Made by a program: the position numbers and the translations under genes
NCBI GenBank assembly: GCA_044230415.1
Contig: JBGARE010000001.1
Location: forward strand, 369,195-433,194
DNA length: 64,000 nt
DNA from: Kofleriaceae bacterium
GTDB taxonomy: Bacteria; Myxococcota_A; Polyangia; Haliangiales; Haliangiaceae
Direction of reading: 5' to 3'
The notes under the pieces: model-generated
Told to the model about the DNA's origin: nothing
Seen by the model: the letters and a program-made list of their open reading frames with translations, nothing else
Database searches by the model: none
In this document: positions 47,730-59,169 of the stretch, in pieces
Position numbering within the stretch: the first letter of the stretch is position 1
Layout of the letters: every line of letters begins with the position of its first letter

Positions 47730-48545
47730 CTAGTCCTCGACGAGGACCGTGCCGCCGATCTTGCGCTCGCCGATCTGGTCGATCGCCGCGCGAAGGTCGC
47801 GGGCCGTGGAGCGGCGTGCGCGGAGAGCGAGCAGCACGGTGTCGGCCGCGTCGGCCATCAGATTGACATCGGCGGAGCCCAGGGTCGGAGGTGCATCGAT
47901 GACGATGTGGTCGTAGCCCGCGAGCCGCAGGCGCTCCATCGCGATCGAGAACGCGGGGCCATCGAGGAGCTGGCCGCGCTCGAACTTCGGGTTGATCGCG
48001 CCGACGTGCAGGTACAGCTCGGGGATGTCGACGAGCGTCCACGCTGCGAGTGGATCCTTGCGATGGATGATCAGCTGATCCGCGAAGCAGCGGGGCGGCA
48101 CGAACTCGAACACCGCCGAGAGCTGCGGACGGCGCAGGTGCGCTTCGACGAGCAGGACCTTCGCGCGCCCGCATTCGGAGAGGGCGAGCGCGAGGTTGAT
48201 CGCCGTCGTGGTCTTCCCGTCGCCGCGTCGCGGGCTCGTCACGACAATGCACTGCGGTCGACCGAGCTCGAGCAGGTGGTGGCGGAGCACGCGGAATGCG
48301 GCGGCGCGCGACGAGTCGGGGGCGAGCGCGACGGCGAGGCGACGGTCCGACTTCGCGTGACGCGGCAGCTGATGCTGCATGATCTGCACGTCGCAGGTGG
48401 CATGCGCGAGGCGCGCGTCGGTGGGAGCGATCGCGACGGTGGCTCGCGGATCTCCCGCCATCGAGCCACGCGTGAGCGTCGTACGCGGGTTGGGACCGAG
48501 ACCGAGCGCGGTCATGGACAAGCTGGGACGCGATGTCGTGCTCAC
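47730..48545 (-). CDS. BY-kinase (Wzc/CapB-type tyrosine autokinase) cytoplasmic ATPase subunit
   Basis: Walker A VVTSPRRGDGKTTTAINLA; Walker B …HIVIDAPP. A separate PCP gene lies upstream, overlapped by 4 nt. Confidence 0.8.
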   Translation of the reverse strand: MSTTSRPSLSMTALGLGPNPRTTLTRGSMAGDPRATVAIAPTDARLAHATCDVQIMQHQLPRHAKSDRRLAVALAPDSSRAAAFRVLRHHLLELGRPQCIVVTSPRRGDGKTTTAINLALALSECGRAKVLLVEAHLRRPQLSAVFEFVPPRCFADQLIIHRKDPLAAWTLVDIPELYLHVGAINPKFERGQLLDGPAFSIAMERLRLAGYDHIVIDAPPTLGSADVNLMADAADTVLLALRARRSTARDLRAAIDQIGERKIGGTVLVED

Positions 48546-50047
48546 GTGCGTTTCTCCTTCTTCGCCGGCTTGCCGACCTGGAGGGCGGCCGCGGGCGGAA
48601 TCACGGCGAGAACCCCGATGCCGAGGTTGTCGAGATCGATGCGGTGGTAGATGCGGTCATCGATCATCGCGAGTCCGAGCGCGAGACCGAGCCCGAGCGT
48701 CAGGAACAACATCATTCCCGCGATCAGGAAGATGGTCTTGCCGGGCCCCGTCGGCTTGACCGGCTTGAACGCGGGATCGACGACGGAGAGTCGACCGCCT
48801 TGCTCGGCGAGCTTCTGGCTCGCGTCGATCTGCGCGCGAAACACGGACGCGGCGAGCGACCCCACGCGCTCGCGCTGCTCGTTGACCTCGCGCCGAAGAA
48901 TCGCATGCTCGGTCTCGAGCTTGACGACCCAGTTCGTCGTCTTGTCGGCCTGCGTGGTGTCCTTCTTGTTCGTCGATGACTGCGCGCTATCGATCTGACC
49001 GTCCAGCGCCGCGAGCTCTTTCTCGAGCTTCTCGCGGTCTTCCTTCGTCGCGGGTGCGATGGGCATCTCGACGAGCGGAGGCACCGCGGCCTGTGCGGCG
49101 CGATATCGCTGCTGCGCCGCGGCGACCACGGACTGCGCCTTGATCACCTCGGGGTGCTTGTCGGTGTAGCGCGACAGAGCAGCGTCGAGGTCGCGCTGCG
49201 CGGCAGTGACCTGACGCTGCGCTTCGGTCGCGGCGGCCTCGGCGGCGATCCGCTCGGGAGTCGGAGGTGCGACGATGCGGACCGGCGGTGCATCCGGGTT
49301 CGCGTCGAGGCGCGCTTGAATGCGCTGCCGTTGGCGCTCGAGCGCGTAGAGGCGGCCATTGCCCGTGCGCGACGGCTTGGGCTCGCGAATCGCGCGGATC
49401 GATGCGCCCTCGGAGTTGCCCTGGTTGGTGTCCTGCGCGAACTCGGGATGCGCGGCGAGGAACGTCGCGAGTGCCTGCTCGCTCTTCGCCAGCTCCTTCG
49501 CCGCCGCTTCCTTCTGCGTCGTCGCGAAGTTCACCGTGCGCGTGGCTTGGTCGTTGCGAAGATCCTCGTCCTTCGCCTGGAGCATCGTCGTCAGCTTCTC
49601 GGTGACCCGCTTCGCGCGTGCGGGATCCGTATCGCGAAAGTTGATGCGGAACGCATTCGCGCCGCGCGCTTCGAACTTGACGAGCTTGCGCAGCTCGTCG
49701 ATCTTGACCTCGATGTCCGGCTCGTCGGGGAACGGGTCGAGCGCCGGGTCGTTGACGATCTGCTCGAGCTGCGAGCGCGCGAGGAGGAGCTCGCGATAGC
49801 GGTCGCCGATGTTGCGTTGAACGATCTCTTCGCGGTTCGGCGACATCAAGCTCGACTGGATGCGCTCCTGGTAGAACAACGTCGCCCACGACTGGAAGTT
49901 CTTCGGCTTCAGGACCGCGAACCCGAGGGCGAGTGCGCCGCCGGCGAGCGCGAACAGTGCGATCAACCACCAGTACCGCGCGGTCTTGCGGGTGAGGTCG
50001 CTGATGCGTTGGAGCTTGTCGCGTGGAGTGATCGGTCCGAGTGCCAT
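48542..50047 (-). CDS. Polysaccharide co-polymerase (PCP/Wzz, GumC-like) membrane subunit of a split BY-kinase
   Basis: N-terminal TM (YWWLIALFALAGGALALGFAVL), a long periplasmic coiled coil, and a C-terminal TM (TIFLIAGMMLFLTLGLGLALGLAMIDD). Confidence 0.75.
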   Translation of the reverse strand: MALGPITPRDKLQRISDLTRKTARYWWLIALFALAGGALALGFAVLKPKNFQSWATLFYQERIQSSLMSPNREEIVQRNIGDRYRELLLARSQLEQIVNDPALDPFPDEPDIEVKIDELRKLVKFEARGANAFRINFRDTDPARAKRVTEKLTTMLQAKDEDLRNDQATRTVNFATTQKEAAAKELAKSEQALATFLAAHPEFAQDTNQGNSEGASIRAIREPKPSRTGNGRLYALERQRQRIQARLDANPDAPPVRIVAPPTPERIAAEAAATEAQRQVTAAQRDLDAALSRYTDKHPEVIKAQSVVAAAQQRYRAAQAAVPPLVEMPIAPATKEDREKLEKELAALDGQIDSAQSSTNKKDTTQADKTTNWVVKLETEHAILRREVNEQRERVGSLAASVFRAQIDASQKLAEQGGRLSVVDPAFKPVKPTGPGKTIFLIAGMMLFLTLGLGLALGLAMIDDRIYHRIDLDNLGIGVLAVIPPAAALQVGKPAKKEKRT

Positions 50048-57466: not shown

Positions 57467-59169
57467 TGGATCCTCCCCACGATCATGGTGATGTCATCCT
57501 TTCGTGGCGCTTCGCCGAAGAACCCCGTCGCGTCGGCGACGATCGAGTCGCGCATCTCGCCGGCGTCGAGCATCGCGGCGCGCTTCACGCTCGCGCGGAA
57601 TCGCTTCTCGCCGTACTCCTCGCCCGCTTCGCTCTCGCACTCGACGATGCCGTCCGTGTACCAGACGAGCACGTCGCCGGAGAGCAGCTCCGTGGTCTTC
57701 GCCTCGTACTTCGAGGTCCGATCGTCGCCGAGGCGGTTGCCGCGGATCATGAGCGAGCCAAACTCGCCCTTGCCGTCGCCCGCTCGATACAGATACGGGA
57801 AGTTGTGGCCGGCGTTCGCGTACGTGATCGTGCGCTGCTTCGTATCGATGATCGACGCGAAGCACGTCATCACGAACCGGCGCTGGGCGCTCTCGAAGAT
57901 CGCGTGGTTCATGATCTCGAGCAGGCGCGTCACGGTGACGTCGTCGTTGTGCACGTGGCGCGCGACGTCGCACGCCGCCTTCGCCGCGGCGGTGATCATC
58001 GCGGAGGGAACGCCGTGGCCCGTGACGTCGCCGATGACGAGCAGGTACTTCCCGCCGACGAGCTCGTGCCACGTCCACCAATCGCCACCGGTCTGCGCGG
58101 CGGGCTGATAGAAGCCCGCGAACTTCAGCATGCCTTTGTCGACGGGCTCCGCCGACGGTACGAGCGTTTCCTGGATCGTCTTCGCGACCTCGAGCTCCTG
58201 CTCCATGCGGGCCTTCTCGGCGGTTTGCATGAGGAGGACCGAGATCTGCTCGGCCATGAAGTTGAAGTTCTCGCCGAGGAACCCGATCTCGTCGTGAGAG
58301 GTGACCTCGACGCGGGCATCGAGATCGCCGCGCGCGATCTGATCCGCTTTCCATGCGAGCTGCTTGATCGGTCGCGTGATCGACAGCCCCTGAAGGATCG
58401 CGAGCACGGTGCCGATCAACACGAACAGACCACCGACGGCGCCGGTGTAGAGCGCCGCGCGCGCCGACGCGGACGCCTTTGCTTCCTCGGCGGCCGACGC
58501 GAACCATTCGATCGGAGCGAGGTCATAGCCGAGCACCACGTAGCCGAGCCGCGCATCCGGCGCCTCGGGCGCGAGCGCACCCGCTGCGGTCGCCGGCGTG
58601 CCGATGAACACGGGGAACGCGAACACGCGGTGCTGCGATCCGGCGGATGCGAGATCGAAGCGGACGAGCGCCTCGCCCTTACCCTTCGCCGCGGTCTTCC
58701 ACGCTTCCTCGGCTTGCCGCCACGAATCGACGGCGAGCTGTCCGATCGTCGGACTGATCGGTTCGTGGTTACCGGGCGCGCACTCGAGCTTCGCGGCTTC
58801 GGTGCAGTACGCGACGACCTTTTGATTCGGGTCGAGGACGTAGGCGAGCTTGAGACCGTAGTCCTTCTTGCTCGCCGGTCCGTCCTTCGTATCCTGCTCG
58901 ACGGTCTCTTTGACCAGCGAGAGAATATCGGCGTCGCGACCGCGATCGATCAGCAGCTGACTGACCGCACGCGCGAACAGCGGCGTACCGAATTCGCCGA
59001 GCGTCTCTCGACCGCTGCGGAAGACTTCGATCTGTCGCTGCGTCGATTCGTCGAACGCTTTGCGAACGTTAATGACGTTAAGAACACCGCTCCCAACGAC
59101 CGTCACGACGATCAGGAGCGTCGTGGTCAAGATCATCTTGACCGACAGGCTTGCCCCTCGCTTGGCCAT
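57463..59169 (-). CDS. Membrane sensor HAMP plus PP2C-type Ser/Thr phosphatase (RsbU/SpoIIE-like)
   Basis: N-terminal TM and periplasmic loop; HAMP (…LAWKADQIARGDLDARVEVTSHDEIGFLGENFNFMAEQI…); PP2C motifs (GDVTGHGVPSAM, …VWYTDGIVE…, …DDITMIVGRI). Confidence 0.8.
   Translation of the reverse strand: MAKRGASLSVKMILTTTLLIVVTVVGSGVLNVINVRKAFDESTQRQIEVFRSGRETLGEFGTPLFARAVSQLLIDRGRDADILSLVKETVEQDTKDGPASKKDYGLKLAYVLDPNQKVVAYCTEAAKLECAPGNHEPISPTIGQLAVDSWRQAEEAWKTAAKGKGEALVRFDLASAGSQHRVFAFPVFIGTPATAAGALAPEAPDARLGYVVLGYDLAPIEWFASAAEEAKASASARAALYTGAVGGLFVLIGTVLAILQGLSITRPIKQLAWKADQIARGDLDARVEVTSHDEIGFLGENFNFMAEQISVLLMQTAEKARMEQELEVAKTIQETLVPSAEPVDKGMLKFAGFYQPAAQTGGDWWTWHELVGGKYLLVIGDVTGHGVPSAMITAAAKAACDVARHVHNDDVTVTRLLEIMNHAIFESAQRRFVMTCFASIIDTKQRTITYANAGHNFPYLYRAGDGKGEFGSLMIRGNRLGDDRTSKYEAKTTELLSGDVLVWYTDGIVECESEAGEEYGEKRFRASVKRAAMLDAGEMRDSIVADATGFFGEAPRKDDITMIVGRIH

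Follow-up and report, generated by a model that had tools for sequence, protein, structure and literature searches.

The 64-kb stretch of Kofleriaceae DNA analysed here (the window) carries a polysaccharide locus whose ten genes, all listed in an earlier sequence-only reading, were found at the same coordinates and show the coding-type GC3 bias expected for DNA of 67% GC. Pfam and NCBIfam searches, from which the domain assignments were taken, identified on the minus strand a HAMP-PP2C membrane sensor phosphatase (568 aa, 57463..59169; HAMP 8e-16, SpoIIE 7e-39), a secreted TPR protein (846 aa, 54926..57466; signal peptide, multiple Pfam TPR families) and a secreted PhnD-like protein, a type 2 periplasmic binding protein (SBP; 298 aa, 54040..54936; signal peptide). 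These are followed by a plus-strand gene for a small, monotopic, PglC-like phosphoglycosyl transferase (PHPT; 244 aa, 53275..54009; Bac_transf 1e-48) and then by a six-gene minus-strand operon encoding, in order, an RsbW-like serine kinase (52655..53125; HATPase_c_2 2e-19), a single-domain STAS protein with an IDSSG motif (101 aa, 52350..52655; STAS 2e-15), a GT4-family glycosyltransferase (418 aa, 51088..52344; Glyco_trans_1_4 6e-35, Glyco_transf_4 6e-21), a short polysaccharide co-polymerase (PCP) paralogue (342 aa, 50063..51091; two TM helices and a CapA-like C-terminal tail), a second PCP (501 aa, 48542..50047; TIGR03007-like 5e-41, below cut-off) and a P-loop ATPase of the BY-kinase family (271 aa, 47730..48545; TIGR03018-like 2e-22, below cut-off).

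Divergent from the phosphatase gene, a plus-strand gene encodes a PAS and coiled-coil protein (184 aa, 59219..59773; PAS_9 and PAS_4, ~1e-5) that is 79–97% identical over the family and has an invariant CX8CX3CX4C motif, its four Cys unchanged in 35 sequences; the gene remains beside the PHPT gene where PP2C-TPR-SBP is absent, and its product is a possible additional input. Convergent with the ATPase gene, and found in many related loci, is a plus-strand gene for a secreted glycoside-hydrolase-like protein (556 aa, 46057..47727), which gave no Pfam match and over part of its length a profile match to β-N-acetylgalactosaminidase 8K2F (6.5e-9). Accessory sugar genes assigned by Pfam (42523..45926, minus strand), comprising a GT1-family glycosyltransferase (44631-45926) and a GFO/IDH/MocA oxidoreductase fused to an NAD-dependent epimerase (42523-44607), are syntenic in many related loci.

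The kinase was assigned a length of 151-156 aa in place of the 202 aa of the maximal ORF. Its best profile match in the PDB was RsbW (6M36, 3e-8), NCBIfam matches to RsbW and SpoIIAB were weak, and the N box, G1 and G2 residues were unchanged across 24 aligned homologues; 845 homologues were found, the best 120 of which were all at least 69% identical. The best PDB matches of the STAS protein were TM1442, SpoIIAA and RsbV. Its orthologues were examined for loss of the phosphorylatable serine, which the sequence-only reading had named as an observation that would count against it, and IDSSGVAA, including the DSSG serine, was invariant in 79 of 79. The STAS ATG shares 1 nt with the kinase TGA (TGATG) and stands behind a GAGGA Shine-Dalgarno sequence, and the pair is translationally coupled in nearly all related loci. 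For GT4 there are two possible start codons, a TTG that shares 4 nt with the STAS stop and an ATG 6 nt downstream; of the two overlaps reported earlier, that of kinase and STAS stands, at 1 nt, whereas the 4-nt overlap of STAS and GT4 exists only with the TTG start. The proposed co-translation of kinase, STAS and biosynthetic genes is supported by the start/stop overlaps in the window and by coupling in related loci.

The gene arrangement is far beyond chance; it recurs in about 80 species-level genomes, with the core PHPT / kinase-STAS-GT4-PCP-PCP-ATPase intact in 54 of the 57 Kofleriaceae species loci that were informative (i.e. had enough flanking DNA). PHPT / kinase-STAS adjacency was seen in every one of the ~80 species loci, and throughout them kinase and STAS, start/stop overlaps included, occupy the first two positions of the biosynthetic operon, the kinases being only 55–92% identical to that of the window. 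The most divergent loci (L082 and L083) keep a minimal unit of PHPT / kinase-STAS-GT4, with PCP and ATPase genes not nearby; in some species unrelated housekeeping genes are interposed between modules.

The phosphatase comprises a first transmembrane helix (~12-34), a periplasmic domain of ~200 aa with two conserved Cys (~35-238), a second transmembrane helix (~239-262), a HAMP domain and a SpoIIE-type PP2C domain; 34 orthologues retain its GDVTGHG, TDG and DDIT motifs. SiaA was its best match both in NCBIfam (1e-29) and in the PDB (PP2C domain 6K4E, 2e-15), but because the score was 103 bits against a 700-bit cut-off, the protein is not a SiaA orthologue. The TPR gene, whose start shares 4 nt with the PP2C stop and which in related loci accompanies the genes for PP2C and SBP, gave a weak PrsT-like match below cut-off (2e-18). 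The PhnD-like protein of the window had no Pfam match of its own, a weak TIGR01098 match and no match in a PDB sequence search; 8 of 17 orthologues match Phosphonate-bd (PF12974, best 2.5e-6), which bears out the earlier label 'SBP-like', and it is likely the ligand-binding partner of the sensor phosphatase. PP2C-TPR-SBP forms its own transcription unit, separated from the kinase operon by the opposite-strand PHPT gene; the phosphatase gene lies in the locus, as had been described, but not in the same operon. In related loci this unit is separable, invertible and sometimes missing from the neighbourhood. No more than 32 of 52 species have the PP2C operon within 10 kb, so the PP2C protein is a putative cognate phosphatase on grounds of proximity.

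PHPT is 74–95% identical over ~80 species and its gene always adjoins the kinase gene, with a gap of 39–197 bp in 79 related loci; in the window, the divergent intergenic region (53126..53274) presumably holds a shared promoter region, and no significant match to a sigma-70-type consensus was found in it. The AF2 model of PHPT (pLDDT 87) had PglC 8E37 as its best Foldseek match (4e-12). The protein carries two subfamily-specific insertions, a β-hairpin (~51-70) and a helical segment (~173-207), and conservation of the latter is close to that of the catalytic core (0.89 vs 0.92). A search of 1.84 billion representatives with PHPT as query returned full-length relatives with both insertions that include STAS-Bac_transf fusions (P0141, 46% identical; P0182, 43%), and the reverse search from P0141 returned further fusions (P0286, P0287 and P0288) and then the Kofleriaceae PHPTs. 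On unrelated low-GC contigs (L088, L089 and L092) a separate STAS gene of 100-121 aa lies directly upstream of, or overlaps, a PHPT gene of the subfamily; other members (L086, L087, L093 and L094) had no STAS nearby. In the low-GC lineages the fused or adjacent STAS has DG[S/T/C]G, not DSSG, and no kinase was found near the STAS-PHPT loci, and for these reasons these STAS domains may act without phosphorylation. These fusions and adjacencies prove that STAS and PHPT are linked, not that there is a switch.

The locus holds a complete RsbV/RsbW/RsbU-type set, as the sequence-only reading had recognised, with catalytic motifs intact and the phospho-serine invariant. We propose, with a probability of about one half, that this serine-phosphorylation module of partner-switching type serves the polysaccharide pathway with PHPT as its most likely direct target, PHPT being singled out because of the STAS-PHPT gene fusions and gene neighbourhood in unrelated lineages. 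A periplasmic signal would be sensed by the HAMP-PP2C phosphatase, with the co-transcribed PhnD-like and TPR proteins probably taking part, and the active phosphatase would remove the phosphate from the DSSG serine of the STAS protein. Unphosphorylated STAS would then bind the cytoplasmic face of PHPT, possibly at a conserved subfamily-specific insertion, and so permit or modulate the step in which the lipid carrier receives the first sugar phosphate; the RsbW-like kinase, translated from the mRNA that also encodes STAS, would re-phosphorylate STAS and turn the pathway off. The Kofleriaceae system would be the counterpart of the STAS-Bac_transf fusion enzymes, but split and acting in trans.

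A counterpoint to PHPT as target is that STAS is co-transcribed and coupled with GT4, while the PHPT gene lies on the opposite strand. It is conceivable, though improbable, that STAS regulates this downstream-encoded glycosyltransferase, and with it the second committed step: the STAS stop and GT4 start are a few nucleotides apart in the window and most related loci (mostly -4 to +14 nt), GT4 is within the minimal conserved unit, and in L088 and L092, too, glycosyltransferase genes come after the STAS-PHPT pair. However, this spacing widens to 150-490 nt in several species, the glycosyltransferases beside STAS-PHPT pairs elsewhere are only generically like that of the window (27-31% identity), and no STAS-GT4 fusion was seen, whereas independent lineages repeatedly show STAS fused to PHPT or encoded beside it.

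With RsbW/SpoIIAB and RsbV/SpoIIAA/TM1442 as the closest solved or curated relatives of kinase and STAS, respectively, a canonical anti-sigma system could also be considered, in which the kinase sequesters a sigma factor encoded elsewhere until STAS frees it, giving transcriptional control of the locus. We regard this as unlikely, since the window yielded no sigma-70-family gene, in agreement with the earlier statement, and tblastn with RpoE and SigF (a soft test with the queries used) gave no match either there or in 84 related loci. SypA, SiaC and HsbA are reportedly characterised partner switches with non-sigma outputs. All4160 is a further characterised example (PMC13555669). The earlier view that the target is a locus enzyme rather than a sigma factor is upheld as to the missing sigma gene and narrowed to PHPT, the likeliest target, by the fusions and neighbourhoods in unrelated lineages.

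The export machinery offers another candidate target. The PCP of 501 aa has weak Wzz and GNVR matches besides TIGR03007; the short PCP had no Pfam match, yet is judged a paralogue because profile-profile comparison with its neighbour (hhalign) gave 97.8% (E 7e-13) and its C-terminal tail matches the CapA1 fragment of 2VED/3BFV/4JLV (E ~0.01), so that the claim of two distinct PCP genes holds. The ATPase, with further NCBIfam matches below cut-offs (EpsG 1e-18, TIGR01007 1e-17), ends directly after GTVLVE; the C-terminal tyrosine cluster is absent, 65 of 66 orthologues having no Tyr among their last 30 residues, and Walker A' reads E-x-H instead of D-x-D both in the window and in 65 of 66 orthologues. 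The label 'BY-kinase' is therefore right as to the P-loop ATPase family and wrong as to the tyrosine cluster and the D-x-D motif. Separate PCP and ATPase proteins are normal for such systems (Firmicutes CapA/CapB, myxobacterial Wzc/Wze pairs), so the gene count, which had been called unusual, is ordinary, and the missing tyrosine cluster is the unusual feature. Since this loss and the altered Walker A' extend to essentially all orthologues, and 54 of 57 loci have kinase, STAS, the two PCPs and the ATPase together in a single, tightly coupled operon, the switch might act on the PCP/ATPase machine, STAS serine phosphorylation replacing the tyrosine cycle that normally gates polymerisation and export. 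This seems very unlikely given that L082 and L083 keep the minimal unit without PCP and ATPase genes nearby, that no fusion or neighbourhood ties STAS to PCPs or ATPases in other lineages, and that ATPases without a tyrosine cluster may simply be constitutive partners. That kinase and STAS are only located in this locus and control some other, unrelated process, as the detachable PP2C operon and the interposed housekeeping genes might suggest, is barely credible against its retention at the head of the operon in ~80 species with kinases so divergent.

Compared with known systems, the module shares with Bacillus RsbU/RsbV/RsbW and SpoIIE/SpoIIAA/SpoIIAB the three domain families, the DSSG motif and the closest solved structures, but its genes lie within a biosynthetic operon with no neighbouring sigma factor gene. 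CapA/CapB-type (PCP-2b) systems likewise have separate membrane PCPs, a tail like the CapA1 activating peptide and a cytoplasmic Walker ATPase of the BY-kinase family; the Kofleriaceae system differs in the missing tyrosine cluster, in its E-x-H Walker A' and in having two PCP paralogues for its one ATPase. In Pseudomonas aeruginosa SiaABCD, a HAMP-PP2C phosphatase, a partner kinase and a small partner-switching phospho-protein control the biofilm matrix (PMC8457831). The likeness lies in these three components, the HAMP-PP2C membrane phosphatase among them. SiaC is not known as a canonical Pfam STAS protein, and its target is the diguanylate cyclase SiaD, whereas no GGDEF gene was found in the Kofleriaceae locus. 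In the syp locus of Vibrio fischeri, SypA is controlled by serine phosphorylation and acts post-transcriptionally, its target still being unknown (PMC4517449, PMC10120452); the parallel drawn earlier with SypA/SypE is fair as an analogy, resting on a single-domain STAS protein in a polysaccharide locus and a likeness at domain-family level, but SypE unites kinase, receiver and PP2C in one protein, while the Kofleriaceae kinase and PP2C are separate, with no receiver and with HAMP membrane input.

The closest precedent is All4160 (STAS-Bac_transf) of Anabaena sp. PCC 7120, whose STAS serine is phosphorylated by an RsbW-like kinase, which inactivates the enzyme until it is reactivated by the SpoIIE-type phosphatase HenR, which it needs (PMC13555669); the module comprises All4160, Alr3423 and HenR, with All2284-All2285 and XssP also named, and the authors described the mechanism as a lineage-specific, cyanobacterial one (Harada, Matsuoka and Ehira 2026, PMC13555669). 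By analogy, both modules would combine a phosphorylatable STAS serine, an RsbW-like kinase, a SpoIIE/PP2C phosphatase and a Bac_transf-type initiating transferase for an extracellular polysaccharide, with no sigma factor, and the PHPT subfamily of the window contains STAS-Bac_transf fusions. In the myxobacterium, unlike the cyanobacterium, STAS is a free protein of 101 aa, its gene diverges from that of PHPT and adjoins the kinase gene, and the place of a receiver-domain phosphatase is taken by a HAMP sensor in the membrane that has periplasmic partners. Given this experimental precedent of 2026 (PMC13555669), the idea is less novel than the sequence-only reading assumed; if it is correct, control of the enzyme that starts polysaccharide synthesis, called cyanobacteria-specific in 2026, would also operate in a soil myxobacterium of the Kofleriaceae.

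GC3-guided ORF calling combined with Pfam and NCBIfam scans resolved the polysaccharide locus of the window (67% GC) into two transcription units on the minus strand, with a single plus-strand gene between them encoding PHPT, a small PglC-like Bac_transf phosphoglycosyl transferase (53275–54009, +). The first unit encodes a HAMP-PP2C phosphatase (57463–59169, −), a secreted TPR protein (54926–57466, −) and a secreted PhnD-like binding protein (SBP; 54040–54936, −), with overlapping starts and stops, while the second is a six-gene operon beginning approximately 150 bp from the start of PHPT and encoding, all on the minus strand, an RsbW-like kinase (52655–53125), a STAS protein (52350–52655), the glycosyltransferase GT4 (51088–52344), a short PCP paralogue, PCPa (50063–51091), a second PCP, PCPb (48542–50047), and a BY-kinase-family ATPase (47730–48545). 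A 202-aa ORF for the kinase was rejected as it extends into the divergent intergenic region; the kinase is 151–156 aa. The kinase/STAS overlap claimed in the sequence-only reading was borne out, with the kinase TGA and the STAS ATG having one base in common (TGATG) and a GAGGA Shine-Dalgarno sequence upstream, while the 4-nt overlap claimed for STAS and the glycosyltransferase holds if the GT4 start is the TTG that overlaps the STAS stop codon and is lost if it is the ATG 6 nt later. Overlaps of 4 nt were also found at the GT4/PCPa and PCPb/ATPase junctions. A promoter/terminator scan returned nothing above chance and alignment of the PHPT–kinase intergenic regions gave a weak common motif only. 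The homologues found for the locus genes belong to MAGs of Kofleriaceae and Haliangiales, in the phylum Myxococcota, and metagenome contigs also carry the same locus.

Downstream of the operon lie genes for a secreted glycoside-hydrolase-like protein, a GT1 and an oxidoreductase–epimerase fusion. The secreted protein (556 aa; 46057–47727, +) has no Pfam match and its profile partly matches the beta-N-acetylgalactosaminidase 8K2F (6.5e-9); on this partial match it may serve as a hydrolase that trims the polymer, and it hints at a GalNAc-type sugar in the polysaccharide product. The fusion, in which a GFO/IDH/MocA oxidoreductase and an NAD-dependent sugar epimerase/dehydratase form one 694-aa protein (42523–44607, −), suggests a channelled nucleotide-sugar modification step. 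Pfam scans detected no Wzx, Wzy or Wza genes in the 64-kb window.

Outside the locus, 460–5864 includes a gene for a vault-like protein of 823 aa, with the Major Vault Protein domains MVP_shoulder (1e-19) and Vault_3 (2e-10). It lies directly downstream of RtcB (2956–4221, −) and divergent from the sigma-54 activator RtcR (4284–5864, +), and its presence inside an Rtc (RNA-repair) operon of a bacterium is unusual. The window also contains five ORFs of very large size (1053–1536 aa; 9861–14441, −; 21550–26160, −; 27516–31055, +; 32873–37444, +; 37387–40548, +), two without Pfam matches and one each matching SUFU (1e-40), PPC and HEAT repeats, as well as an ORF (16651–17676, −) that matches an IS200-like Y1 transposase domain (1.5e-10) and has a GC3 signal weaker than that of its neighbours.

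The STAS protein is a single domain (Pfam STAS, 2e-15) with a phosphorylatable serine in a DSxG motif. This serine, whose loss from orthologues the sequence-only reading would have counted against itself, is retained, the segment IDSSGVAA being unchanged in 79 of 79 sequences. The kinase (HATPase_c_2, 2e-19) is of the GHKL type with N, G1 and G2 boxes, residues E60, N63/N64, D95xG97 and G120–G123 are invariant or nearly so, and its best PDB match is RsbW. The phosphatase (SpoIIE, 7e-39) conserves the metal-binding aspartate motifs GDVTGHG, TDG and DDIT. All components of the STAS/RsbW-like kinase/HAMP-PP2C set previously proposed for the locus are thus present, with the phosphatase in a separate unit and not in the same operon. 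The periplasmic sensor domain of the phosphatase (residues ~35–238) has no family match and, at a mean identity of 0.59, varies more than any other part of the protein, yet it contains two conserved cysteines approximately 8 residues apart. The binding-protein call was also upheld, on the Pfam matches of orthologues: the window protein has no Pfam match, but Phosphonate-bd was matched in 8 of 17 orthologues, single orthologues matched other binding-protein-type families (LysR_substrate, PBP_like_2, NMT1), and a PDB sequence search with the profile gave no match.

Conservation was assessed in one genome per GTDB species; a relative of the kinase was present in 109 genomes, of which the 80 best were used. 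By record title nearly all of these 80 were MAGs of Kofleriaceae, Haliangiales or other myxobacteria or deltaproteobacteria, with broader or different labels on a few, and the homologue lists were saturated by Kofleriaceae. The arrangement of a divergent PHPT beside kinase–STAS–GT4–PCPa–PCPb–ATPase was entire in 54 of the 57 loci with enough flank, whereas the two most divergent loci (L082 and L083) retained only PHPT and kinase–STAS–GT4. The kinase-to-STAS junction measured −8 to +4 nt in most loci; the kinase gene adjoins PHPT in all of them and the phosphatase is nearby in most, both scored by presence only. In 32 of 52 species loci the phosphatase–TPR–SBP unit is found no more than 10 kb away; it is inverted in L006, and elsewhere unrelated housekeeping genes intervene. 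A gene for a 184-aa PAS and coiled-coil protein (59219–59773, +) is, at 79–97% identity family-wide, one of the best conserved in the neighbourhood; it adjoins PHPT even where the phosphatase unit is absent and adjoins the phosphatase where the block is inverted. The four invariant cysteines of the protein (CX8CX3CX4C in 35 sequences) are possibly metal- or Fe-S-binding.

The evidence that links STAS to PHPT comes from the PHPT subfamily itself. The PHPT model, confident at pLDDT 87, shows the monotopic fold of a PglC-like enzyme, in which the beta-hairpin is extended and a helical segment is added. In an exhaustive search of 1.84 billion representatives, most matches covered the catalytic core alone. 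Among the few full-length relatives with both insertions were two STAS–Bac_transf fusions (P0141 and P0182), whose STAS domains were confirmed with the Kofleriaceae STAS HMM and Pfam. A reverse search with P0141 returned stand-alone PHPTs of approximately 236 aa, three further fusions (P0286, P0287 and P0288) and then the Kofleriaceae PHPTs at ~45% identity; the five fusions have both PHPT insertions in common with these enzymes and are their reciprocal near relatives. In three further loci (L088, L089 and L092), which have a GC content of 38–47% and therefore belong to unrelated organisms, a separate STAS gene of 100–121 aa lies immediately upstream of, or overlaps, a stand-alone PHPT gene. 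The subfamily thus has fused, adjacent co-directional and adjacent divergent STAS–PHPT architectures, which by the classic fusion/fission argument speaks for a physical interaction. The second insertion (residues 173–207) matches the catalytic core in its degree of conservation among Kofleriaceae, which marks it out as a candidate element for STAS docking. No STAS or kinase gene was found in the gene contexts of four other PHPT relatives (P0121, P0122, P0137 and P0138), so that the association is limited to part of the subfamily, and a plasmid collection searched with P0141 for XssP, of a Synechocystis megaplasmid, gave generic sugar transferases only.

Outside the Kofleriaceae (L085 and L088–L092, GC 34–47%), the STAS fused or adjacent to PHPT bears DG[S/T/C]G and not DSSG, placing a glycine at the canonical phosphoserine position; the motif comes from an alignment of the five fusions with two adjacent genes and, for L092, from the ORF. 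Scans with the Kofleriaceae kinase and STAS HMMs and Pfam found no RsbW-like kinase beside these low-GC pairs. The motif leaves room for a pairing there that may be phosphorylation-independent or differently phosphorylated.

At the distal end of the operon, the sequence-only call of two distinct PCP genes held: PCPa has no Pfam match, and its profile pairs with that of PCPb (hhalign 97.8%, E 7e-13). The C-terminal tail of PCPa resembles the CapA1 peptide of the CapA1/CapB chimera structures. The accompanying ‘BY-kinase’ call stood in part. Walker A (G[DE]GKTT) and Walker B ([IV][IV][IV]DAPP) are found in most orthologues, but Walker A' is E-x-H in the window (E[AT]H or D[AG][HN] in orthologues) and not D-x-D, and the C-terminal tyrosine cluster is absent, with no tyrosine within the last 30 residues of the window protein and of 65 of 66 orthologues. 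The protein terminates straight after GTVLVE, with the end of the convergent gene 3 nt away, and no window protein scanned matched a phosphotyrosine phosphatase family in Pfam. From these motifs it is better called a BY-kinase-like ATPase.

We propose a mechanism in which the HAMP-PP2C phosphatase would read a periplasmic cue, probably with the binding protein and the TPR protein, and would then dephosphorylate STAS-P; free STAS would engage PHPT and allow initiation, and the co-translated kinase would re-phosphorylate STAS and shut the pathway, the sign of regulation being borrowed from Anabaena. We place the probability that PHPT is the direct target of the switch at about one half. GT4 is one competitor as STAS target: its gene is translationally coupled with that of STAS, but no fusion evidence connects the two, and the glycosyltransferase genes next to the low-GC STAS–PHPT pairs are not orthologues of GT4. 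The PCP/ATPase machine would be an attractive target because the ATPase has no tyrosine cluster of its own, but its genes are missing from the minimal conserved unit. That the switched partner is a sigma factor encoded elsewhere would match the usual role of such modules, but, as the sequence-only reading had stated, Pfam scans found no sigma-70-family gene in the 64-kb window, and tblastn with RpoE and SigF, a soft test, found none in the window or in the 84 related loci. Mere hitch-hiking of the kinase–STAS pair in the locus is contradicted by their coupling across the family.

Beyond PHPT as the direct target, a wider reading, which we consider improbable as a whole, is that a serine phospho-switch here replaces the tyrosine autophosphorylation of Wzc/BY-kinase systems. 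The ATPase having dispensed with its tyrosine cluster, free STAS would alternate between its kinase and a partner in the membrane machinery (PHPT, the two-PCP/ATPase complex or both) and tie a periplasmic signal to initiation as well as to polymerisation/export. On a broader view, STAS proteins that occur free in polysaccharide loci, SypA included, might generally act on a phosphoglycosyl transferase.

Several known systems were compared with the locus. Window proteins matched TIGR03007, 03018, 03013, 03088 and 02917, all well under the curated cut-offs, and Pfam scans of the window found no exosortase domain, and an XrtA/PEP-CTERM locus was therefore rejected. The phosphatase most resembles SiaA, at 103 bits against the NF038263 cut-off of 700 bits and over the HAMP-PP2C part only; with this score and no GGDEF domain (the diguanylate cyclase output of SiaD type) in Pfam scans of any locus or window gene, membership of SiaABCD was rejected too. 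In the RsbV/RsbW/RsbU type the switched partner is a sigma factor, usually encoded alongside, whereas the scans found none in the window. The parallel previously drawn with Vibrio SypA/SypE is fair as an analogy: SypA is likewise a STAS protein inside a polysaccharide locus, with a target still to be identified (PMC4517449). SypE, however, unites kinase, receiver and PP2C in one protein, whereas the window encodes a kinase of 151–156 aa and, apart from it, a HAMP-PP2C of 568 aa, and no receiver is present. PHPT offers a concrete, testable candidate target for orphan STAS proteins of other polysaccharide loci such as SypA.

The closest counterpart is in Anabaena, where direct, post-translational control of the first membrane step in polysaccharide synthesis by a partner switch was demonstrated only in 2026 (PMC13555669). 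In All4160 a STAS domain precedes the Bac_transf domain in one polypeptide, and RsbW-like kinases phosphorylate it in vitro at Ser74; the SpoIIE-type phosphatase HenR is no longer required when All4160 is replaced by a non-phosphorylatable variant or when the kinase Alr3423 is lost. The authors describe such fusions as rare beyond the cyanobacteria and the mechanism as lineage-specific (PMC13555669). The window locus runs counter to that view. Our literature search turned up no report of a partner switch or of a STAS protein for polysaccharide synthesis in myxobacteria. The present data suggest that this logic also operates in another phylum, the Myxococcota, where its parts are split and act in trans, the phosphatase is a membrane sensor, and a BY-kinase-like ATPase without a tyrosine cluster accompanies the switch; it is a possible route for soil myxobacteria to gate matrix production by periplasmic cues. 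The observation stands: the arrangement is strongly conserved, can be interpreted, and represents a split form, new and in a different phylum, of a mode of regulation described only recently. Unlike the N-terminal fusions of the All4160/XssP type, STAS and PHPT are encoded here by separate divergent genes; PHPT falls in a STAS-associated Bac_transf lineage, and genes for an RsbW-like kinase and a SpoIIE-type phosphatase are present in both. We infer that the window system works like the All4160/Alr3423/HenR module, minus its defining fused architecture.
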